From assembly GCF_022846255.1 (NCBI RefSeq), contig NZ_AP025682.1: a stretch of 64,000 nt of DNA. One strand, given 5' to 3'. How positions within the stretch are numbered: the stretch's first letter is position 1; each line of letters opens with the position of its first letter. Under the pieces are notes generated by a model. The model did no database searches and was not told the DNA's origin. It worked only from the letters and a program-made list of their open reading frames with translations. Both the position numbers and the translations under genes were made by a program. Origin of the DNA: Escherichia coli (lineage in GTDB: Bacteria > Pseudomonadota > Gammaproteobacteria > Enterobacterales > Enterobacteriaceae). Shown here one piece after another: positions 10,270 to 61,044 of the stretch.

Positions 10270-10362
10270 TCTTGCCGGATGCGGCGTGAACGCCTTATCC
10301 GGCCTACAGGGTAGTGCTGAATCACCCCGTAGGCCTGATAAGCGTAGCGCATCAGGCAATGT
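10270..10362. repeat. Pair of REP elements (BIME-like) between the adhesin 3' end and the lldP promoter
   Basis: gccggatgcggcgtgaacgccttatccggcctaca followed by an inverted copy, gtaggcctgataagcgtagcgcatcaggcaatg. Confidence 0.85.
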
Positions 10363-10389
10363 GGCGTTTACCCATTTGTTAATGGATCA

Positions 10390-21452: not shown

Positions 21453-21815
21453 ATGTTTCTAAACTATTTCGCGTTGGGAGTGCTGATCTTCGTCTTTCTG
21501 GTGATTTTTTATGGAATCATCGCGATACATGACATCCCTTATCTGATTGCCAAAAAGCGCAACCATCCCCATGCTGACGCTATTCATACGGCGGGCTGGG
21601 TGAGCCTGTTTACTCTGCATGTTATCTGGCCGTTCCTGTGGATCTGGGCGACGCTCTATCAACCGGAGCGCGGCTGGGGTATGCAGTCACATGTTGCGTC
21701 GCAGGAGAAAACGACTGACGCGGAAATCGCCGCACTTTCTGACCGGATTTCCCGGCTGGAGCACCAACTCGCCGCCGAGAAAAAGACTGACTATTCCACG
21801 TTCCCGGAGATCTAA
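21453..21815 (+). CDS. yibI: DUF3302 inner membrane protein YibI (120 aa)
   Basis: [53 protein letters not shown]... Confidence 0.9.
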
Positions 21816-21817
21816 TA

Positions 21818-22954
21818 ATGGATCTATTGATTGTTTTAACTTACGTGGCGCTGGCGTGGGCGGTCTTTAAAATCTTCCGCATTCCGGTGAATCAGTGGAC
21901 GCTGGCGACGGCGGCGCTGGGAGGCGTGTTTCTGGTGAGTGGTTTGATTTTGTTGATGAACTACAACCACCCTTACACTTTTACCGCGCAAAAGGCAGTG
22001 ATAGCGATCCCCATCACGCCACAGGTGACGGGAATTGTTACTGAAGTCACCGACAAAAATAATCAGCTTATTCAGAAGGGCGAGGTGCTTTTTAAGCTCG
22101 ACCCGGTTCGTTACCAGGCGCGAGTTGACAGGCTTCAGGCTGACCTGATGACGGCGACGCATAATATAAAGACGCTGCGCGCGCAGCTCACTGAAGCGCA
22201 GGCCAACACCACCCAGGTTTCAGCGGAGCGCGACCGTCTGTTTAAAAATTATCAACGTTATCTGAAAGGCAGCCAGGCGGCGGTGAATCCGTTCTCGGAA
22301 CGTGATATCGACGATGCGCGGCAAAATTTCCTCGCGCAGGATGCGCTGGTGAAAGGCTCGGTGGCGGAGCAGGCGCAGATCCAGAGCCAGCTCGACAGTA
22401 TGGTTAACGGCGAGCAATCGCAGATTGTGAGCTTAAGAGCGCAACTTACTGAAGCAAAATATAACCTTGAGCAGACCGTCATTCGCGCACCGAGCAATGG
22501 CTACGTCACTCAGGTACTGATCCGCCCAGGTACATACGCCGCTGCCTTGCCGCTGCGTCCGGTGATGGTCTTCATCCCCGAGCAAAAACGGCAAATTGTC
22601 GCCCAATTTCGGCAAAACTCGCTGTTACGTCTGAAACCCGGCGATGATGCGGAAGTGGTGTTTAACGCGCTACCTGGGCAGGTGTTTCACGGCAAACTGA
22701 CCAGTATTTTACCTGTCGTGCCAGGCGGTTCTTATCAGGCGCAGGGGGTATTGCAATCATTAACGGTCGTGCCCGGCACGGACGGTGTGCTGGGAACCAT
22801 TGAACTGGACCCTAACGATGATATCGATGCCTTACCCGACGGCATTTACGCCCAGGTAGCAGTTTACTCCGACCATTTCAGCCATGTTTCGGTGATGCGG
22901 AAGGTGCTGCTGAGAATGACCAGTTGGATGCATTATCTTTATTTGGATCATTGA
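21818..22954 (+). CDS. yibH: HlyD-family membrane fusion protein YibH (378 aa)
   Basis: [42 protein letters not shown]... with a long coiled-coil periplasmic region; 3 bp downstream of yibI. Confidence 0.9.
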
Positions 22955-23024
22955 GACTTGTATCACCTGTGTTTTGCGCGAGCCTGAGCCATACTGATAT
23001 TTTTCCTCGCACAAAGGACTCGGC

Positions 23025-28350: not shown

Positions 28351-28428
28351 CTATCTCAAAACTTGCTTTTTTTGAGATAGTTTCTCTTTCCTGCTATACA
28401 CTATCTCAATATTGCGCTTTTTTGAGAT
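28351..28428. promoter_or_regulatory. Two copies of a ~30-bp palindrome immediately upstream of the fic gene (candidate operators)
   Basis: ctatctcaaaacttgctttttttgagatag (28351-28380) and ctatctcaatattgcgcttttttgagata (28401-28428); each is the inverted repeat ctatctcaa-N11/12-ttgagata(g); the second ends 7 bp before the fic ATG. Confidence 0.5.
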
Positions 28429-28434
28429 AAGCAC

Positions 28435-29730
28435 ATGGCTATCAAATCACCTCCCGGACTTATTCCTTTATCACACTTATCGGGTGAGGAACTCCTGGCC
28501 CACCTGCGCTTTAACCGGGTTACCGATGAAAAAGGACGTTATCTGCCTTTTGATGAGTTGCAGTACCGCATCAAAAAAGGAGAAAACGTCGATGTGGCGT
28601 GGACGCTTACCCGTCTGGCGCGCAACGCGGCGATCCAACGAATTAATTATTGCAATGAAGCGGGTGAACAGGCCGGATTCAACATTACCCCGGTGATTGC
28701 AGAAGCGTGCGAGCTTGTCGACAAACGTGCTACCGCGCTGGCGCTGAAAGATCAGACTGAACGGTTACGCGGGGCCGGAGCCGAGTTAAGCCAGTTACGC
28801 CTGGAAGAGCCGATCACCAGCTCCCAGCTGGAAGGTGCGAATACTACAACGCTGGTGGCGAGAAAAATGCTGGAAACAGGGCGGTCGCCACGCACTGAAG
28901 ACGAGCATATGATTGCGGGAAATGCCCGGCTGATGGCGGAAATTCCGCACTTACTCGCAGAACCGCTGACACCTGCGCTTATTCGCCAGTTACATGCCAT
29001 TGGTATGGGTGGAATCAATGACGCGAAATATCGTCCGGGAGAATTTCGTGAAACAGATGATGTTGTGATCGCCGACTATGATGGCAATATAGTGCATCAA
29101 CCGCCCGCTGCGGCATTGTTACCGGAACGGCTGGAAAAAGTTTGCCAGTGGTTAAACAGCCATGAAGGGTATATTCATCCGTTGGTCCGTGCCTGCATTC
29201 TGCATTTTATGCTGGCCCATGAACATCCGTTTCGGGATGGCAACGGGCGCACCAGTCGGGCGCTGTTTTACTGGTATATGCTGAAATCGGGCTACGATGT
29301 CTTTAAATATATTTCCATCAGCCGTTTGCTTCATGCTGCACCGGTCAAATATGCCGCCAGCTACCAGTACACTGAATCAGATGGTATGGATCTGACTTAT
29401 TTCCTTGAATATCAGGCGGGTGTCATTAAACGTGCTCTGCAAAACTGGCAGCAGCATATCGATGAAATTACACAACGAAGCGCAAAACTCGATAGTGTGC
29501 TGTTTAGCTCTGGTGTGCTTAAACGCCTGAATCCGCGCCAGGTAACGCTCCTGAATGTGATGCTCGCCAATCCGGGGAAAGAGTACACAGTTGCTGAAAT
29601 TAGCGCGAGCCTGGGCGTCTCTGATAATACGGCTCGAGCTGATTTACGGACAATTGTTAAAGAAGGATTCGCGCAAGAGAAAAGAATTAATAACCAGCAA
29701 GCAGTGTACGTCGCACACTACCCGCTGTAG
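28435..29730 (+). CDS. Fic-domain protein (431 aa), class II (internal inhibitory motif), with C-terminal winged-helix-like domain
   Basis: Canonical Fic active-site motif [14 protein letters not shown] (HPFx[D/E]GNGRxxR); upstream SSQLEG matches the inhibitory-helix motif [S/T]xxxE[G/N]; C-terminal segment ...[29 protein letters not shown]... looks like a helix-turn-helix. Confidence 0.85.
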
Positions 29731-29837: not shown

Positions 29838-31376
29838 ATGACCAATAATCCCCCTTCAGCACAGATTAAGCCCGGCGAGTATGGTTTCCCCCTCAAATTA
29901 AAAGCCCGCTACGACAACTTTATCGGTGGCGAATGGGTAGCGCCTGCCGATGGCGAGTATTACCAGAACCTGACGCCGGTGACCGGGCAGCTACTGTGCG
30001 AAGTGGCGTCTTCGGGCAAACGAGACATCGATCTGGCGCTGGATGCTGCGCATAAAGTGAAAGATAAATGGGCGCACACCTCGGTGCAGGATCGCGCGGC
30101 GATTCTGTTTAAGATTGCCGATCGAATGGAACAAAACCTTGAACTTTTAGCGACGGCAGAAACCTGGGATAACGGCAAACCCATTCGCGAAACCAGTGCT
30201 GCCGACGTGCCGCTGGCGATTGATCATTTTCGCTATTTCGCCTCGTGTATTCGGGCGCAGGAAGGTGGGATCAGTGAAGTGGATAGCGAAACCGTGGCCT
30301 ATCATTTCCATGAACCGTTAGGCGTGGTGGGGCAGATTATCCCGTGGAACTTCCCGCTGCTGATGGCGAGCTGGAAAATGGCCCCCGCGCTGGCGGCGGG
30401 CAACTGTGTGGTGCTGAAACCCGCACGTCTTACTCCGCTTTCTGTACTGCTGCTAATGGAAATCGTCGGTGATTTACTGCCGCCAGGGGTGGTGAACGTG
30501 GTCAATGGCGCAGGTGGGGAAATTGGCGAATATCTGGCGACCTCGAAACGCATCTCCAAAGTGGCGTTTACTGGCTCAACGGAAGTGGGCCAACAAATTA
30601 TGCAATACGCCACGCAAAACATTATTCCGGTGACGCTGGAGCTGGGCGGCAAATCGCCAAATATCTTCTTTGCTGATGTGATGGATGAAGAAGATGCCTT
30701 TTTCGATAAAGCGCTGGAAGGCTTTGCACTGTTTGCCTTTAACCAGGGCGAAGTTTGCACCTGTCCAAGCCGTGCTTTAGTGCAGGAGTCTATCTACGAA
30801 CGCTTTATGGAACGCGCTATCCGCCGTGTCGAAAGCATTCGCAGCGGTAACCCGCTCGACAGCGTGACGCAAATGGGCGCGCAGGTTTCTCACGGGCAAC
30901 TGGAAACCATCCTCAACTACATTGATATCGGTAAAAAAGAGGGCGCTGATGTGCTCACCGGCGGGCGACGCAAGCTGCTGGAAGGCGAACTGAAAGACGG
31001 CTACTACCTCGAACCGACGATTCTGTTTGGTCAGAACAATATGCGCGTGTTCCAGGAGGAGATTTTTGGCCCGGTGCTGGCGGTAACCACCTTCAAAACG
31101 ATAGAAGAAGCGCTGGAGCTGGCGAACGATACGCAATATGGCCTGGGCGCGGGCGTCTGGAGCCGCAACGGTAATCTGGCCTATAAGATGGGGCGCGGCA
31201 TTCAGGCTGGGCGCGTGTGGACCAACTGTTATCACGCTTACCCGGCACATGCGGCGTTTGGCGGCTACAAACAATCAGGCATTGGCCGCGAAACCCACAA
31301 AATGATGCTTGAGCATTACCAGCAAACCAAGTGCCTGCTGGTGAGCTACTCGGATAAACCGTTGGGGCTGTTCTGA
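29838..31376 (+). CDS. aldB: Aldehyde dehydrogenase B (512 aa)
   Basis: [51 protein letters not shown]...; the track ORF is extended upstream, start set at the ATG at 29838. Confidence 0.95.
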
Positions 31377-31387
31377 TGTGAAAGGCT

Positions 31388-31408
31388 GCCCGGCGTGTAT
31401 TGCCGGGC
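31388..31408. terminator. Hairpin between convergent aldB and sgbE (likely bidirectional terminator)
   Basis: gcccggc gtgtatt gccgggc, a perfect 7-bp stem, in the 46-bp spacer. Confidence 0.55.
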
Positions 31409-31422
31409 ACTATCAGGTATGG

Positions 31423-32118
31423 CTACTGCCCGTAATAGGCATTGGCCCCATGCTTACGCAGGTAGTGCTTATCCAGCAGTTCGTTTTGCATCGCAGGGAG
31501 CTGTGGCGCAAGCTGGCGCGAGAACAGACCCATATAGGCGCACTCTTCCAGTACCACGGCGTTATGCACCGCATCGGCGGCATTTTTTCCCCAGGCGAAC
31601 GGGCCGTGAGAATGCACCAGTACCGCCGGGATTTGTGCCGGGTTCAACCCACGCTCTTCGAAGGTTTTAATGATCACTTTGCCGGTCTGGTATTCATACT
31701 CGCCGTTGATCTCTTCTGCGGTCATCAGGCGCGTGCAGGGGATGGCTCCGTAAAAATAATCGGCGTGAGTAGTGCCCCAGGCGGGGAGATCAAGTCCGGC
31801 CTGCGACCAGATGGTGGCGTGGCGCGAGTGGGTATGCACTATGCCGCCAATCTCCGCAAAGCGACGGTAAAGCGCCAGATGCGTTGGCGTGTCGGAAGAG
31901 GGCTTTTTGCTGCCTTCCACCACCTTGCCGCTGGCTATCTCAACCACCACCATATCGTCGGCGGTCATTACCTCATACTCAACGCCGGAAGGCTTAATCA
32001 CCATCCATTGCCGCGTTTCGTCTATCGCGCTGACATTGCCCCAGGTGAACGTCACCAGATGATGAACGGGAAGCGCCAGGTTTGCCGCCAGCACGTCGGC
32101 TTTCAGTTGCTCTAACAT
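31423..32118 (-). CDS. sgbE: L-ribulose-5-phosphate 4-epimerase SgbE (231 aa)
   Basis: [80 protein letters not shown]... Confidence 0.95.
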
Positions 32119-32972
32119 ATAAATCCGGCCTCCTGCATACGCGCTTCAATCCAGCGCCGCGCCTGAATAATCTCCAGCACCGGCTCTTTGGCTTTTTCGG
32201 TCCACATCTCAATCAGGAAAGAACCGCGATAGTTCAGCTCATGCAGCGTTTTGAAGATGCCAACAAAATCGACACAGCCTTCGCCAAACGGCACATCGCG
32301 GAACTGTCCGGGGCTATGTTTGGTAACGGGTTGAGTGTCTTTCAGGTGGATGGCGGCGATACGGTCGATGCCCAGTTTCAGTTCGGCGGGAACATCATTG
32401 CCCCAGGCGCTGAGATTGCCTACGTCCGGGTAAACGGTGAACCACGGTGACGCAAGCATTTCGTCCCACTTTTTCCATTTGCTGATAGAGTTCATAAACG
32501 CGGTGTCCATAATCTCCACCGCCAGCATGACTTGTGATGCCGCTGCCTGTTCAACCGCCCACGCCAGCCCTTCAGCAAACCGTTGCTGGGTGCCTTCGTC
32601 ATGATCCTCGTAATAGACGTCGTAACCTGCCAGTTGAATAGTACGAATGCCGAGATCGCGCGCCAGGCGAATCGCTTTACTCATAATCTCCCGCGCCCGC
32701 TGGCGCACGGCGTCGTCCCGGCTACCAAAAGGAAAACGACGATGTGCGGACAGGCACATTGACGGAATAGCAACACCCGTTTCGATCATCGCAGTGACCA
32801 GCGAAGCACGTTGTGCGGCGCTCCAGTCAAGACGTGACAACCGTTCGTCGGTTTCATCCACCGACATTTCGACAAAATCAAAACCACAGCTTTTTGCCAG
32901 CACCAGCCGCTCCGGCCAGGAGAGATCTTTCGCCAGCGCTTTTTCATAAATGCCTAACGGATGATTACGCAC
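32112..32972 (-). CDS. sgbU: L-xylulose-5-phosphate 3-epimerase SgbU (286 aa; start inferred as GTG)
   Basis: ...[49 protein letters not shown]...; the track ORF runs 30 codons further upstream and the start choice is uncertain. Confidence 0.85.
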
Positions 32973-33627
32973 GCTTGCCTCCCCAGATGGAGTCGATTTG
33001 CGCATGGAAATCGCCAGCCACTTGCGCCGGATTTGCTGCGCCTGCCAGCGCCCGTCCGGCAATAAACGCTTTCACGCGGATCTCTTTAAACAGCGGCAGG
33101 TCAGCAGGGGTAATCCCGCCGGTAATGGAAAGCTCAAGGCCGATATCGGAAAGCGCTTTCATGCGTGCCAGATCGGCCTCGCCCCACTGTTGCCCGCTGG
33201 CCTGCGCGTCACGACCACGATGATAAATCGCCTGTCGTACACCAATACGATGCCAGTCACGGGCGTCGTCCAGCGTCCAGTTGCCGAATAGCTCGATCTG
33301 AATTTCACCGCCGCAGTTCTGTGCCATCGCGTGGCCTTTTTCCACCGTGGCGAGCGGCGCGGCGCAGATGATGGTCATCCAGTTAGCGCCTGCGCCAAAT
33401 GCCTGTTGCGCGAGCGTTTCACCCGCGTCGGCGACCTTCCAGTCGGCAACGATGATTTTGTCAGGGCACTGTTCGCGCAAGGCTTTCACGGCGCCAAGCC
33501 CTTCGTTTAAACAGAGAATGGTGCCTGCTTCGACAATATCGACGCTGTCTTTTAACCGCGTCACGTCGCGCTGCGCGGCTTCAAGTGATGAGTGGTCGAG
33601 GGCCAGTTGCAGAAGTGGTCGACTCAT
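32965..33627 (-). CDS. sgbH: 3-keto-L-gulonate-6-phosphate decarboxylase SgbH (220 aa)
   Basis: [95 protein letters not shown]... Confidence 0.95.
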
Positions 33628-35120
33628 AATGTGTGCTCCTTGATGCGGGCGTGATAACCCTGAAGTGCGGCAATGAGATGTTGATAGCGTTGGTATTTTT
33701 GTTGGTAAAGCTGATGCGCGGCCATATCCGGCTGCAGGGTGCGTACCGGGTGTCGCAAGTCACGTTGGGCTTCGCTGAAATCGCGATAAACCCCGGTACC
33801 GACGCGGGCGGCAAGTGCCGCACCAAAGCAGCCGGTTTCTTCCACCTGCGGCAGCTCGATACGCAGACCGCTGACGTCCGCCAGCATTTGCATCCAGACA
33901 TCGGAGTGCGCCGGGCCGCCAGTGACGCGCAGGGTGTGCACATCAATAAAACGTTCGCGCATCCGGTTGAGATGGGTCATATGGCTGAACACCACCCCTT
34001 CATAGACAGCCTGTAAGAGGTGTGCACGGGTGTGAATGGCCTGCATCCCGTAGAAACCGCTGGTCATTTCGAGTCCGGCGTTGCTGCCGTACAGGAACGG
34101 CAGGAAAAAGAGATCGCCACCGGCTTTCGGCAAACTGGCAACGGCCTGATTAATCTCAGCAAATGAGATTTCTCCCCACTGTGCGGTAAACCATTCGAGA
34201 TTGCCGGAAGAGGTGGGGCTGGCTTCGTGAACGATAAATTGACCATCGTTAACGTAGCGACCATAGACATACGGATGCGCTTCACCGTCACGTAAACCGT
34301 GGGTTATGCCGCTGGTCACCGCCCAGGTCCCCATCACCGCATTGAGGGTGAATTCGTCTTCGAGCCCGGCGCAGAGTGCGGTGGAAACCACATCAAACAG
34401 GCCGCCGACAACGGGGGTACCTGCTTTCAGACCGGTCAGTACGGCTGTCTGAGCGGTGATTTCCCCGCAGATTTCGGCAGATCCGACAACAGGCGGCAGG
34501 GCGTGATTGATTTCAGCAATCCCCAGCCAGTCGGTAAGGCACGGGTCATATTCCCCGCGACTCATGTTGTAGAGATTGGACTCAGAAATATTGCTCTCTT
34601 CGCAACCTTTGACGCCGGTTAAACACCAGCGCAGGTAGTCGTGCGTCATCATCACGCAGCCAATTTGCGCGTAGCGTTCTGGTTCGTGCTCTTTCAGCCA
34701 GCGTAACAGCGACACCGGATGCCCGGTCCATAAGGTTTGTCGGGTCAGCGGATAGAGTTTTTCCGGGATGCCATCTTCCTGCCAGCGACGAACGATTTCC
34801 ATCGCCCGGCGATCCGAGGACAAAATGGCGTTACCGAGCGGTTTGTCGTTTTTATCAAGTAGAAATAAGCCCTTTCCCTGCGCGGAGATGCCGATACCGA
34901 CAATTTGTTCCCCGCTGACGCCGGAATGGGTAAGCAGGGCGCGAATGACAGCAGTGCAACATTGCCACAGTTCTGCCATGTCGCGCTCTGCCCAGCCTGG
35001 CTGTGGACTTAATGCGCACAGCGGCAGGCGCTGCACGCCCGCCTCCCGGCCTTCTCGGTCATACAGCCCGGCTTTCAGCCAGCTACCGCCACAATCTAAC
35101 CCCAGCCAGTATTGCGTCAT
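33624..35120 (-). CDS. lyxK: L-xylulose / 3-keto-L-gulonate kinase LyxK (498 aa)
   Basis: MTQYWLGLDCGGSWLKAGLYDREGREAGVQRLPLCALSPQPGWAERDMAELWQ... (FGGY sugar kinase). Confidence 0.95.
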   Translation of the reverse strand: MTQYWLGLDCGGSWLKAGLYDREGREAGVQRLPLCALSPQPGWAERDMAELWQCCTAVIRALLTHSGVSGEQIVGIGISAQGKGLFLLDKNDKPLGNAILSSDRRAMEIVRRWQEDGIPEKLYPLTRQTLWTGHPVSLLRWLKEHEPERYAQIGCVMMTHDYLRWCLTGVKGCEESNISESNLYNMSRGEYDPCLTDWLGIAEINHALPPVVGSAEICGEITAQTAVLTGLKAGTPVVGGLFDVVSTALCAGLEDEFTLNAVMGTWAVTSGITHGLRDGEAHPYVYGRYVNDGQFIVHEASPTSSGNLEWFTAQWGEISFAEINQAVASLPKAGGDLFFLPFLYGSNAGLEMTSGFYGMQAIHTRAHLLQAVYEGVVFSHMTHLNRMRERFIDVHTLRVTGGPAHSDVWMQMLADVSGLRIELPQVEETGCFGAALAARVGTGVYRDFSEAQRDLRHPVRTLQPDMAAHQLYQQKYQRYQHLIAALQGYHARIKEHTL

Positions 35121-35123
35121 GGT

Positions 35124-36110
35124 TTATTGCACCTCATCCACGGCTTTCAGCAGATCAGCACCCTGCGGAACATCTTTAACAAACATGTCACGGACCTGGG
35201 TACCCAGCGTATCGCTAAAGGCTTTGCGGTCGAGATCGGTGATGACTTCCACGCCCGCTTCTTTCATACCGTCGATGATTTTTTGCTGATCTTCGGCGAC
35301 CAGTTTGCGCTGATAGCTACCCGCTTCCTGTGCAGATGAGATCAGTGCTTGCTGGAACTCCGGGGTTAAGCCATCAAACTTCGCTTTGTTGATCACCACC
35401 AGAAGCGGCGAATAGGCGTGATGGGTCAGAGAAAGGTACTTCTGCACTTCATAAAATTTTGCTGACCAGACGACGTTGATCGGGTGTTCCTGAGCGTCGA
35501 TAGTGCGGGTTTCCAGCCCGGTATAGACTTCGGCAAACGGCATCGGGATCGGGTTAGCGCCAAAAACTTTAAATGCAGCGATATTCATCGGGCTGTTGTT
35601 GGTGCGGATTTTCAACCCTTTCAGGTCGGCAGGCGTTTTGACCGGTGCACGCGAGTTGGTGACATCGCGCCAGCCGTTTTCCCAGTAGGCCAGTACTTTC
35701 AGCCCCTTACCTTCAAGGGAGACTTTCAGGTCATCACCGACTTTGCCGTCGAGCGTTTTATGCGCGTGAGCGGTATCGCGGAACAGGAACGGGACATCGA
35801 GCAGGTTGATGACGGGCGAGAGTCCCGTAAAGTTGTTAGAGCCAGACATCTCCATATCAATAGTGCCGCCACGCACGCCGCTGATCATCGCCTGCGCATT
35901 ACCAAGGGTGCTATCCGGGAACAGTTTTAATTTCAGTTCGCCTTTGGTTTTTTCCTGCAGTAATTCATTAAATTTTTTCGCCGCAATATGTTGTGAATCG
36001 GTTTGTGAGGTTTCATAACCGAAACGTAATGATTGTGCCGCCAGAGAAGATGTGCTGAACGTCGCCACTCCGGCAATTAATAAAGCGTAGGTTACAGAAC
36101 GTAATTTCAT
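35124..36110 (-). CDS. yiaO: TRAP transporter substrate-binding protein YiaO (328 aa)
   Basis: MKLRSVTYALLIAGVATFSTSSLAAQSLRFGYETSQTDSQHIAAKKFNELLQEKTKGELKLKLFPDSTLGNAQAMISGVRGGTIDM... Confidence 0.95.
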   Translation of the reverse strand: MKLRSVTYALLIAGVATFSTSSLAAQSLRFGYETSQTDSQHIAAKKFNELLQEKTKGELKLKLFPDSTLGNAQAMISGVRGGTIDMEMSGSNNFTGLSPVINLLDVPFLFRDTAHAHKTLDGKVGDDLKVSLEGKGLKVLAYWENGWRDVTNSRAPVKTPADLKGLKIRTNNSPMNIAAFKVFGANPIPMPFAEVYTGLETRTIDAQEHPINVVWSAKFYEVQKYLSLTHHAYSPLLVVINKAKFDGLTPEFQQALISSAQEAGSYQRKLVAEDQQKIIDGMKEAGVEVITDLDRKAFSDTLGTQVRDMFVKDVPQGADLLKAVDEVQ

Positions 36111-36122
36111 TATGATTTCCTT

Positions 36123-37400
36123 TTAACTCATCCATTTAAGAGGAGCGGTAATGAGCTCCGGTATAAAAATAAATAATGCTAACAACATGAATAAAACCAT
36201 GACGTAAGGCGCAACGCCTTTTACCGCATCGTCAAATTTAAGTTTCGCCACGCCGCATACCACGTTAAGAACATTACCGACTGGAGGCGTAATCAGTGAT
36301 ATTGAACAGTTGATAATAAACATGATGCCGAAATAGACCGGATCTATTCCCGCTTCTTTCACTAATGGCATTAATACTGGTGTAAGAATTAATACGGTAG
36401 GCGTTAAGTCCATGACCGTACTGATCACCATAATAGCGAGCATAATGACGATGAATAATAAGCGAGGCGAATCAACCAACGGTTGTAATAGCTCCGATAC
36501 CATCATGGGTAATTCGGCGATCGTAATAAGCCATGCAGATACCGCAGCAGAGGCCACCAGGAACATCACCACGGATGTGGTTTTTGCCGCGTTAATCAGC
36601 ACATGATAAAGCGTGGAGAAGGTCATCTCGCGATAGACCACCACCGAGACGAACAGAGCGTAGAAGGCGGCAACCGCGCCTGCTTCGGTCGGTGTAAATA
36701 ACCCCGAACGGAAACCGCCAATAATAATTATCGGTAAAAAGAGCGCCCAAATACCGGAAACTAAGGATTGCCAGACTTCTCGCAGTGAGGCTTTCGGCTG
36801 ACAAGGTAAATTCAGTCGTTTTGCCTGCCACCACCAGGTAACCATCAGCGTGACGCCCATCATGATGCCTGGCGCAATGCCCGCCATAAACAGTTTGCTG
36901 ATGGAGAGTCCGCTGGAGACGCCGAAGATAATGAGTGGTATGGAAGGCGGGATAATGGCCGCAATAATCCCCCCGGAACCGATAAGCCCGGCGGCGCGGT
37001 TTACCGGATAGTTGGCCTGGCGCATCATCGGCACCAGCAGCGCCGCGACAGCTGCGGTATCAGCAACCGCAGAACCGGACAGGCTTGCCATGATCATCGC
37101 TGCCAGCACGCCCACGTAACCCAGACCGCCTGGCCTGTGGCCTACCAGTTTCATTGGCAAGTCGACGATACGTTGCGACAGGCCGCCCGCGTTCATGAGC
37201 TCACCCGCCAGTACAAAGAAGGGGATGGCTAACAGGGAGAAGCTGTCTGCGCCATTTACCAACGTTTGTGCCAGAATTTGCACATCAAAGATATCCATCC
37301 AGAACATCAATGAAATGCCGCACAGTAATAATGCCCAGGCGATGGGAACGCCAATTGCGATAGCCCCTAACAAACTGACAATAAATATAAGGATTGTCAT
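36123..37400 (-). CDS. yiaN: TRAP transporter large permease YiaN (425 aa)
   Basis: MTILIFIVSLLGAIAIGVPIAWALLLCGISLMFWMDIFDVQILAQTLVNGADSFSLLAIPFFVLAGELMN...; the track ORF is extended upstream, start at the ATG at 37398-37400. Confidence 0.93.
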   Translation of the reverse strand: MTILIFIVSLLGAIAIGVPIAWALLLCGISLMFWMDIFDVQILAQTLVNGADSFSLLAIPFFVLAGELMNAGGLSQRIVDLPMKLVGHRPGGLGYVGVLAAMIMASLSGSAVADTAAVAALLVPMMRQANYPVNRAAGLIGSGGIIAAIIPPSIPLIIFGVSSGLSISKLFMAGIAPGIMMGVTLMVTWWWQAKRLNLPCQPKASLREVWQSLVSGIWALFLPIIIIGGFRSGLFTPTEAGAVAAFYALFVSVVVYREMTFSTLYHVLINAAKTTSVVMFLVASAAVSAWLITIAELPMMVSELLQPLVDSPRLLFIVIMLAIMVISTVMDLTPTVLILTPVLMPLVKEAGIDPVYFGIMFIINCSISLITPPVGNVLNVVCGVAKLKFDDAVKGVAPYVMVLFMLLALFIFIPELITAPLKWMS

Positions 37401-37402
37401 CG

Positions 37403-37870
37403 TCAGGCTCCTTGTTGGTTTCGGCTGGGGGTATTTGTGAACTGCCGGTATAAGTGACGCAATTCCAGCAATGCGATAATCAGACTGGTGGGGATAGCGG
37501 CGGCGTACATTAAGCCAACGGGGACGCCAAGAATGGGCGATAAGTTGCTCCAGTCTTGCGCTGTTTTTTCTATAGCGCCCCAGGCCAGCCCCAGACACAG
37601 CAATAAAATGAGCGTATGGGTTAGCAGCGAAACACGTTGTTGATTAGCCGGTGAGAGTTTTTCGACTAAAAAAGTAACCTGCACATGGCTGTTGTCCATA
37701 TAAGCAACGATTGCGCCAATAAAGGTTAACCAGACAAATAAAAGTCGGGATAATTCATCAATCGATAATATACTTGTGTGGAATCCATATCGAAGAATAA
37801 TATTAATAAAAATAATACAAGACAGTATTGCGATGATGATCGCAAGAATGCCTTCGAGTATCCGTTTCAT
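37403..37870 (-). CDS. yiaM: TRAP transporter small permease YiaM (about 155 aa)
   Basis: [72 protein letters not shown]... Confidence 0.92.
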
Positions 37871-37983
37871 AACGAGTCCTTCTGGTTATGCAATATTTTT
37901 TATGCGCTAATGTTGTTAATATTCGTAATAATTATCAGAAAACGGCTAATTAGATATTCAAAGTGATATATAAATGGTTCTGT

Positions 37984-38904
37984 TTAACGAGATTCATTCA
38001 GAGAGTGAATGCCGTTGCGTAATATTTCGATGCGATGGTGCACATCAGCCGTCGCATTTATTTCCAGTAGCTTGATCCCAGCAAAATGCAATGTTGACGA
38101 TTCTGCTACATTAAATAACTCGCGAACATGATCTGTGGTCATCAGGCTTTCTGCGCAGAATGGTGCAAACGGTGCGTGTAAATCCTGCCATTCGCCGTAT
38201 GCCCCGTTTAGCGTCGTACCAGAGAACATTAACGCGCCGAGTTTTCCGGCTTGTTTCGCCATTTGGGTGTGGGCCAGCGGCAGCGTTGTATTGCGCCCTT
38301 CAATGGCAGAGCGCGCCCAGTTGATACAGATGCTGATGTCATAATCGGTAATAACTTCCAGCACATTTTCTAAAGGCAAAAAGCCTTTTCGGGGGGAAGA
38401 AGATGTCATGGCGTCGCAGTGTTCCAGCACCAGCTTGCACGGCCAGTCCCAACTGGCGATTTCTTTCAATGAGTGGGCAAAAGCGTCCGTCGCCTGCATA
38501 ACATTAGGATTCGTTGCTAACGGTGCAGCCTGGAGCTCCAGTGCGAGCACTTTATTAGCCTGCAATGCGTTGATTTTATTGAACAGGTGGCGATAGTACG
38601 CCACGCAGGCCTGGCGCTGTTCTTCATCACTGGAGGCGAGACCAAACCCGCTGTTTTCGCTGCGGCGACGCATGGTTTCCATCACTGCGGTGACGACAAA
38701 TTTCCAGCTCTCTGGCGTATGACGGAGTAACCATTGATCGCCCAGCGGGTGAAAATTTTCCAGGCAAGGTTGTTCCAGCCCCAAAATGTCTGGAGTCTCA
38801 GATAATTGTCGCCAGAAATCCTTCTCTTCCTCTTCACTTCTTTGGTGAAAAGAAGGTGCACAGGGATACGCGCCGATAATATAACCGGCATTATTCGTTT
38901 TCAT
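37984..38904 (-). CDS. Uncharacterised 306-aa protein inside the yiaK-sgbE operon, between yiaL and yiaM; no confident family assignment
   Basis: Uninterrupted ORF starting [60 protein letters not shown]... with GGAG 8 nt upstream of the ATG; 22 bp downstream of yiaL, same strand; no signal peptide or transmembrane segment evident; not part of the K-12 operon as I recall it. Confidence 0.75.
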
Positions 38905-60767: not shown

Positions 60768-61044
60768 CGCTAAATAATAGAGCAACCTTTAATAATCTTC
60801 TGCTGAATAAAGATTGTCTCATATATTAATTTTATGAGATTTTTTTAGGATTATATCAAGGAGAAGAAACGAACTTATTAAGCTAGAATAGCCACGGGTG
60901 CTTGAGACTGTTTGTCTCAGGTATTCACCGAAAGGCAGACAGAGAAAAGCCCCACCTGACTATAAATCAAAGTGAGGCCCCTCTATGCATAGACACCATA
61001 AGGTTAGCCTCTTACTCGTTGGAAATCAACACAGGGGGCTGGGA

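Follow-up and report, generated by a model that had tools for sequence, protein, structure and literature searches.

The 46-bp aldB-sgbE junction in an Escherichia coli strain: a probable deletion scar bearing the 3' end of hicB

We analysed a window of 64,000 nucleotides of Escherichia coli DNA (assembly GCF_022846255.1, contig NZ_AP025682.1) and identified in it two intact genes, aldB and sgbE, that converge across an intergenic spacer of only 46 bp. The features of this locus, in coordinates of the window, are:

29838..31376, plus strand: aldB, intact, 512 codons plus TGA, encoding aldehyde dehydrogenase B
31377-31422, no strand: intergenic spacer from stop to stop, 46 bp, a probable deletion scar
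31377..31388, plus strand: aldB-downstream remnant, 12 nt, homologous to the sequence after the aldB stop of all other E. coli
31385..31408, plus strand: putative hicB 3'-end relic, GCTGCCCGGCGTGTATTGCCGGGC, codons AARRVLPG, residues 128-135 of 136
31387-31409, no strand: hairpin with an 8-bp stem, TGCCCGGC/GCCGGGCA, and a 7-nt loop, GTGTATT
31409..31422, no strand: right-hand segment, 14 nt, ACTATCAGGTATGG, adjoining the sgbE stop
31423-32118, minus strand: sgbE, intact, 231 codons, encoding L-ribulose-5-phosphate 4-epimerase

The TGA that ends the aldB frame lies at 31374-31376, and the start of the gene was taken from the RefSeq annotation of LF82, whose near-identical locus carries genes labelled aldB and araD (the latter being sgbE). 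The aldB product matches the NCBIfam ExaC/AldB equivalog, an AldB/ExaC-type aldehyde dehydrogenase, with 916 bits, and is 99.4% identical in amino acids to AldB of K-12. On the other side, sgbE ends in CTA at 31423-31425, which is TAG on the minus strand, and its full-length 231-aa product matches PRK12347 with 509 bits over positions 1-231 of 231. The spacer, TGTGAAAGGCTGCCCGGCGTGTATTGCCGGGCACTATCAGGTATGG, begins and ends at stop codons, with aldB on the plus strand and sgbE on the minus strand. A sequence-only reading of this DNA had described 46 bp with one hairpin between the convergent stops, and the window contains exactly that.

The stem of the hairpin is GC-rich, as intrinsic terminators require, with G-C pairs at seven of its eight positions. 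Folded in context, it reaches -25.5 kcal/mol on the plus strand and -24.2 kcal/mol on the minus strand, and it folds more stably than shuffled sequences, with z = -2.5 and z = -4.6, respectively. A U-tract 3' of the stem is absent on both strands, where the tails read CUAUCAGG (plus) and GCCUUUCAC (minus). In addition, a scan for consensus promoters and terminators returned no terminator at the spacer on either strand, and Rfam covariance models gave no match on either strand of positions 31100-31700 at E<=1. The hairpin would be at best a weak terminator, because a U-tract is wanting on both strands. For the transcripts of aldB and yiaK-sgbE, which converge here, it probably does no more than terminate weakly in both directions or protect 3' ends, and read-through between aldB and the yiaK-sgbE operon would be likely when both are expressed. 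The hairpin is present once in the window and once per genome, and shows no similarity to the REP sequences that follow aldB in K-12, R9 and O145; it is not a REP/BIME member.

In MG1655, the aldB and sgbE stops are 4,191 bp apart. The earlier reading had placed yiaT, yiaU, yiaV and yiaW between the two genes in K-12, and inspection of MG1655, where adjacency of aldB and sgbE would have overturned that reading, bore this out. The order there is aldB, a gene for a 48-aa hypothetical protein, yiaW, yiaV, yiaU, yiaT, two pseudogene relics and sgbE, and the interval also holds two REP elements. Homology between the window and K-12 breaks exactly at both stop codons; the spacer has no homology to the K-12 interval, and REP sequence is absent from it. 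To speak of four missing genes understates the loss, as the closest relatives also carry hicAB and/or a GH127-MFS-AraC cassette here.

The direct junction is common among public genomes. A 1-kb junction probe was covered over at least 80% of its length in 480 of 5,426 complete E. coli genomes, always at an identity of at least 99.3%, while a 96-bp probe and the bare 46 bp each recovered 479. Nissle 1917 and ATCC 25922 have a spacer 100% identical to that of the window, and the named carriers of the junction (LF82, Nissle 1917, ATCC 25922, UTI89, APEC O2:K1 and IMT5155) all belong to phylogroup B2 (ST73, ST95, ST135 and related). The aldB-sgbE junction was absent from the ST131 genomes in these searches. 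In O157:H7 genomes, the junction probe matched one place only, at aldB. LF82, Nissle 1917, ATCC 25922 and UTI89, together with E. albertii NBRC 107761 and TW07627, share the gene order of the window, fic-aldB-46 bp-sgbE-sgbU-sgbH-lyxK. The window is 99.5% identical to LF82 over 11 kb and thus is not LF82 itself; it shows no difference of substance from this junction group, of which it is another member. That the junction comes from an assembly or sampling artefact, such as a collapsed or mis-joined contig, has a practically negligible probability, given that 479-480 genomes, each finished independently, share it with five or more E. albertii records; we found nothing in favour of an artefact.

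The yiaWVUT block was found in 3,810 of the 5,426 genomes, always as a single copy. In the remaining 1,616 it is missing genome-wide rather than relocated, and it is also missing from the window. Besides the 46-bp junction, we found the following arrangements of the interval, the counts of which are approximate and slightly overlapping because BLAST pieces up to about 1 kb apart were joined and hicAB alleles may fall in two classes:

K-12 type, about 2,460 genomes: aldB-REP-hicB relic-yiaWVUT-GH127 relic-AraC relic-sgbE
BL21/O145 type, about 1,255 genomes: yiaWVUT, an intact GH127 beta-L-arabinofuranosidase-like gene, an MFS_2 transporter and an AraC regulator
R9/ST131-like type, about 820-865 genomes: aldB-REP-GH127-MFS-AraC-sgbE
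hicAB type, 506 genomes with intact hicAB: aldB-REP-hicA-hicB, followed by GH127 (AF206, M11957) or by orf108-yiaWVUT-GH127 (RMDEC465)
SW07163 type: IS1-associated loss of yiaY through yiaU
Cryptic-clade genome SCPM-O-B-8794: REP directly adjoining sgbE
O145:H28 RM12581 (L004, 17876-18016): yiaJ-yiaK...sgbE operon deleted, with a yiaJ fragment between the AraC gene and ysaA

The aldB-sgbE interval is a hotspot of deletion, for which E. coli shows at least seven arrangements. The R9/ST131-like junction is a REP-to-REP crossover when compared with the O145 type. O145 and BL21 retain yiaWVUT and GH127, and RMDEC465 retains hicAB, orf108, yiaWVUT, GH127 and the start of MFS; its order, aldB-hicA-hicB-orf108-yiaWVUT-GH127-MFS, is the most complete arrangement seen, the compared stretch ending inside MFS. 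K-12 has the same flanks and convergent orientation as the window and has likewise been derived by deletion, retaining a 3' relic of hicB and pseudogene relics of GH127 and AraC; it differs in keeping yiaWVUT and the REPs, in being without fic and the DUF4862 gene, and in an sgb operon allele that is 88-93% identical. The K-12 hicB relic (L001, 9620-9730) is unannotated, about 100 nt long with a 10-nt internal deletion, and lies between the aldB REPs and yiaW. It is common to about 3,784 other genomes and partly overlaps the gene for the 48-aa hypothetical protein; this protein corresponds, in truncated form, to orf108 of RMDEC465 (108 aa).

The origin of the spacer became apparent from a word-11 BLAST search with the bare 46 bp as query. 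Nucleotides 9-32 of the spacer match the end of hicB at 24 of 24 positions, collinear and on the same strand, in AF206 and M11957, where hicB lies directly downstream of aldB. In AF206 the match falls at 8239-8262 of L091, in the gene of a 136-aa antitoxin on the aldB strand, and about 524 further genomes match the same 24 nucleotides perfectly, always under a HicB annotation adjoining aldB. The products of intact hicAB match HicA_toxin and HicB_lk_antitox in Pfam, the latter spanning residues 3-129. The alignment with plasmid HicB homologues from Proteus, Serratia, Pantoea, Azotobacter, Vibrio and rhizobia extends as far as residue 133, which argues that the relic bases are genuine hicB coding sequence and not a captured intergenic hairpin. 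The hicAB cassette that lies downstream of aldB in AF206, M11957 and RMDEC465, at the same position and on the same strand, is accordingly the source to which the 24-nt relic and the hairpin point. In intact hicB the stem is followed by GTTTAATCTCGCGTTT, a tail that is missing from the window, and the surviving stem-loop would be the stem of what was once the hicB terminator, now without the T-rich tail. Toxin-antitoxin function cannot remain in the window, since hicA is missing and hicB is reduced to 24 nt, its last eight or so codons.

Upstream of the relic, the spacer retains sequence that belongs after aldB. In other E. coli the aldB stop is followed by TGTAAGAAGCTG, or by TGTGAAAAGCTG in M11957, and megablast matches between the window and the other configurations extend at most 12 nt past the stop, to 31388. 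The motif (A)GAAGCTG, 5-8 nt long depending on the allele, is found both downstream of aldB and in hicB just upstream of the relic, and the left junction lies within this microhomology. The hicB relic and the 12 nt of aldB-downstream sequence thus stand in the order and on the strand that they have in the undeleted allele, as the two sides of a deletion scar should. The right junction has no recognisable repeat. The 14 nt there correspond to ACTCTCAGGCATGG in E. albertii; allowing up to two mismatches, no source for them was found in the deleted interval of any compared configuration, the only matches being chance ones inside aldB. A CATATC microhomology between Citrobacter post-terminator sequence and the 3' end of the AraC gene was considered and rejected, as its predicted product is unlike the window.

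Based on these observations, we regard the 46 bp, with a probability of roughly 85%, as a scar left by the deletion of about 10 kb of optional genes from an interval of the Escherichia chromosome that is hypervariable. The full layout would have read aldB-REP-hicA-hicB-orf108-yiaW-yiaV-yiaU-yiaT-REP-GH127 glycosidase-MFS sugar transporter-AraC regulator-sgbE. One loss would begin 12 nt past the stop of aldB and finish 30 nt short of the hicB end, removing the REP, hicA and most of hicB, and another from just past the terminal hairpin of hicB to the sgbE stop. Because the left join falls inside the short direct repeat (A)GAAGCTG, it may have arisen by microhomology-mediated deletion or by replication slippage; short direct repeats are likewise a feature of enterobacterial deletions mediated by REP/BIME elements or microhomology. 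Either one complex event or two successive deletions could have produced the junction, and none of the matches listed is an intermediate with one of the two losses. Two other known alleles were ruled out as precursors of the scar, namely a K-12-like hicB relic (about 100 nt with a 10-nt internal gap), which is different and longer, and the R9-like allele, which keeps no hicB relic. The alleles of K-12, ST131-like R9, SCPM-O-B-8794, SW07163 and O145 are demonstrably separate deletions of one and the same layout, and the hicAB-only arrangement is a different deletion of it as well.

A different source for the hairpin was our first reading. In two Citrobacter species, a TGCCCGG...CCGGGCA stem lies 15 nt past the aldB stop and is followed by TATC and a T-run in Citrobacter sp. 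FP75 and by TCAAGTTATG in C. werkmanii, while the window has TGCCCGGC...GCCGGGCA followed by CTATC. The hairpin might accordingly be the original Rho-independent terminator of aldB with its U-tract truncated, and not a relic of hicB. We dropped this idea after the 24/24 hicB matches and now give it a slim chance of being right. The agreement with Citrobacter is confined to 7+7 bases in the stem, which form a generic CCCGG palindrome, and does not extend to the loop, whereas the match to hicB includes the loop and is found at the same locus in the same orientation; moreover, all other E. coli have REPs after aldB and not this stem. On a minority reading, the resemblance to the Citrobacter aldB terminator would mean that the stem predates hicAB.

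Comparison with Citrobacter also bears on which state of the interval is older. In Citrobacter sp. FP75 the order is aldB-yiaW-V-U-T-GH127-MFS-AraC-sgbE, with the same order and orientation as in E. coli, and C. werkmanii resembles FP75 as far as AraC. Protein identities between FP75 and E. coli are 68-89% for the block and 87-96% for the flanks, values that fit vertical descent of the block. Since the block is in place in Citrobacter, the interval was occupied in the common ancestor and the state of the window is derived. The yiaWVUT genes are then ancestral, K-12 is no reference state, and the absence of the genes relative to K-12 reflects differential loss. The suggestion in the sequence-only reading that yiaT-yiaW form a lineage-specific cassette fails on this point, given that Citrobacter has these genes at the same site and that 3,810 of the 5,426 genomes of E. 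coli carry them. Among the genomes sampled, with outgroups that leave out E. fergusonii, Salmonella and named cryptic-clade species, hicAB was found at this locus in Escherichia only.

Could aldB and sgbE have been adjacent originally, with the K-12-type genes as lineage-specific insertions into an empty site? The direct junction is found in several genomes of E. albertii, an early-branching Escherichia, and the 46 bp show no visible mobility genes or scars except the hairpin. We nevertheless give this explanation very little credence. Citrobacter has the full block at the same position, in the same order and with flank-like divergence, and the cryptic-clade genome L017 does not have the 46-bp state. 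Furthermore, the hairpin is internal hicB coding sequence that lies about 0.9 kb from aldB and about 9 kb from sgbE in full alleles, so that an empty site needs two independent insertions flanking the hairpin and its capture as conserved HicB codons. The yiaWVUT block itself, present in 70% of genomes, is without integrase, tRNA or att features, and none of these, nor any IS, is annotated within it in K-12.

The deletion scar is shared with E. albertii. The type strain of that species and at least four other records, including TW07627, carry fic-aldB-46 bp-sgbE. Their spacer is identical to that of the window at 44 of 46 positions, including the hicB relic and both junctions. The sgbE stop is TAG in the window and in E. 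albertii, and TAA in K-12, R9 and SCPM-O-B-8794. The agreement of the spacer, the relic, both junctions and the TAG stop indicates that the scar is identical by descent in E. coli B2 and E. albertii. The flanks of the scar in the window are B2-typical, being 98.5-100% identical to ST131-like R9, and do not resemble those of E. albertii up to a distance of 16 bp from the scar on its left side and 3 bp on its right side. Over the locus, the window and E. albertii are about 93% identical, as is ordinary between species. Sliding-window identity and SNP tables excluded a recent import from modern E. albertii, the flanks being B2-like up to the junction.

An older exchange is another matter, and one that concerns the route by which the scar was inherited and not its nature. 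The scar may have arisen once, in E. albertii or an unsampled Escherichia lineage, and have entered the B2 ancestor by homologous recombination, or the reverse; we see this as a real possibility, though on balance a doubtful one. The composite scar, with 44 of 46 nt and the same two junctions, occurs in E. albertii and a tight B2 cluster only, and the B2 scar group and E. albertii have in common the TAG stop of sgbE as well as fic and the DUF4862 gene. The B2 sgbE is 95.0% identical to that of E. albertii and 92.4% to that of K-12, with one 200-bp stretch at 99% identity to the former, and a phylogenetic discontinuity falls exactly at the scar, the aldB side being 96.5% identical to K-12 and the sgb side 88-93%. 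However, the flanks are B2-typical and not albertii-like nearly up to the scar, ST131-like B2 genomes have the same flanks without the scar, and the divergence of the spacer (2 of 46) is statistically indistinguishable from that of the flanks (about 7%). In R9, the GH127-MFS-AraC cassette is 96-98% identical to that of other E. coli and sgbE only 92%.

More tentatively, the scar, fic, the DUF4862 gene and the deeply divergent sgbE-yiaM allele may form a single old haplotype that crosses the boundary between E. albertii and the B2 subclade, which we consider somewhat unlikely. If so, recombination may have maintained or exchanged the haplotype while the adjoining bases were homogenised within each species, and the aldB/sgbE boundary would be a recombination breakpoint of long standing that marks ancient gene flow between E. 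albertii and E. coli. The history of the scar may involve either an old transfer or a long-lived polymorphism.

For the strain itself, the deletions mean that it is without the YiaT outer-membrane protein, the LysR-type regulator YiaU (LpsR), the YiaVW membrane-fusion pair, HicAB and the GH127/MFS/AraC cassette. Work on K-12 has led to the proposal that YiaU, under the name LpsR, regulates yiaT and activates the waa operon for the LPS core (PMC9068703). Some 30% of the complete E. coli genomes lack YiaU, Nissle 1917 and the main ExPEC lineages among them, so the LpsR regulatory model cannot be general to the species. A literature search on aldB/sgbE and yiaT-W variation returned no paper on the aldB-sgbE junction. 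Hundreds of public genomes, those of model strains included, already contain the junction with its annotation, and it is nothing new in kind. Deletions mediated by REPs, IS elements or microhomology are well known to generate presence/absence polymorphism; the locus is a case of ordinary strain-to-strain variation in gene content, and the identical scar in a B2 subclade and in E. albertii is a mild curiosity. The hicB relic is a convenient marker with which to follow how the locus has changed, and the importance of the locus goes little beyond bookkeeping of its variation.

Over the 64 kb, the window and MG1655 differ in an adhesin island, a missing RhsA element, fic, the scar, a DUF4862 gene and a missing IS150. 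The sequence-only reading had described the region as a mosaic of lineage-specific cassettes on a conserved backbone; the whole-window alignment with MG1655 agrees with the mosaic and its backbone, and the part of the claim that does not hold is the counting of yiaWVUT among the cassettes. The segment from sgbE to yiaM (31424-37881) is 88.3% identical to K-12, compared with 95-98% for neighbouring segments; the scar marks the exact start of this divergent sgb block and the DUF4862 indel its end. From sgbE to lyxK, B2, K-12, the cryptic-clade genome and E. albertii are roughly equidistant. The DUF4862 gene (37984-38904, minus strand, 306 aa) lies between yiaM and yiaL, is the one that had been taken for an extra yia gene, is absent from K-12 and occurs at the same place in E. 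albertii.

The fic segment (28358-29724, CDS 28435-29730) carries a 431-aa Fic-domain gene between yiaY and aldB and forms a clean 1,367-bp indel relative to K-12. LF82, R9, O145 and E. albertii have the gene, and K-12, AF206, M11957, RMDEC465 and Citrobacter lack it; it looks like a gain in the Escherichia lineage with later losses, not a strain-specific insertion. In E. albertii TW07627, a Y1_Tnp gene (IS200/RAYT-like tyrosine transposase; L085, 9884-10393) that is absent from the window lies between fic and yiaY.

Elsewhere in the window, a 6-kb segment between lldP and yibL (10333-16305) is absent from K-12. It encodes a 1,543-aa YadA-type trimeric autotransporter adhesin (10390-15021, minus strand) with an ESPR signal, head repeats, stalk and anchor, and also has a 227-aa ORF without a Pfam match. 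The 8.2-kb RhsA element of K-12, located between yibH and yibF, is absent at about 22956-22987, and a K-12 copy of IS150 is absent at about 60974-61012. The yibI-yibH pair (21453-22951), with 75-77% amino acid identity to YiaW/YiaV, is retained, so that the DUF3302/HlyD-type pair is not wholly lost from the strain.
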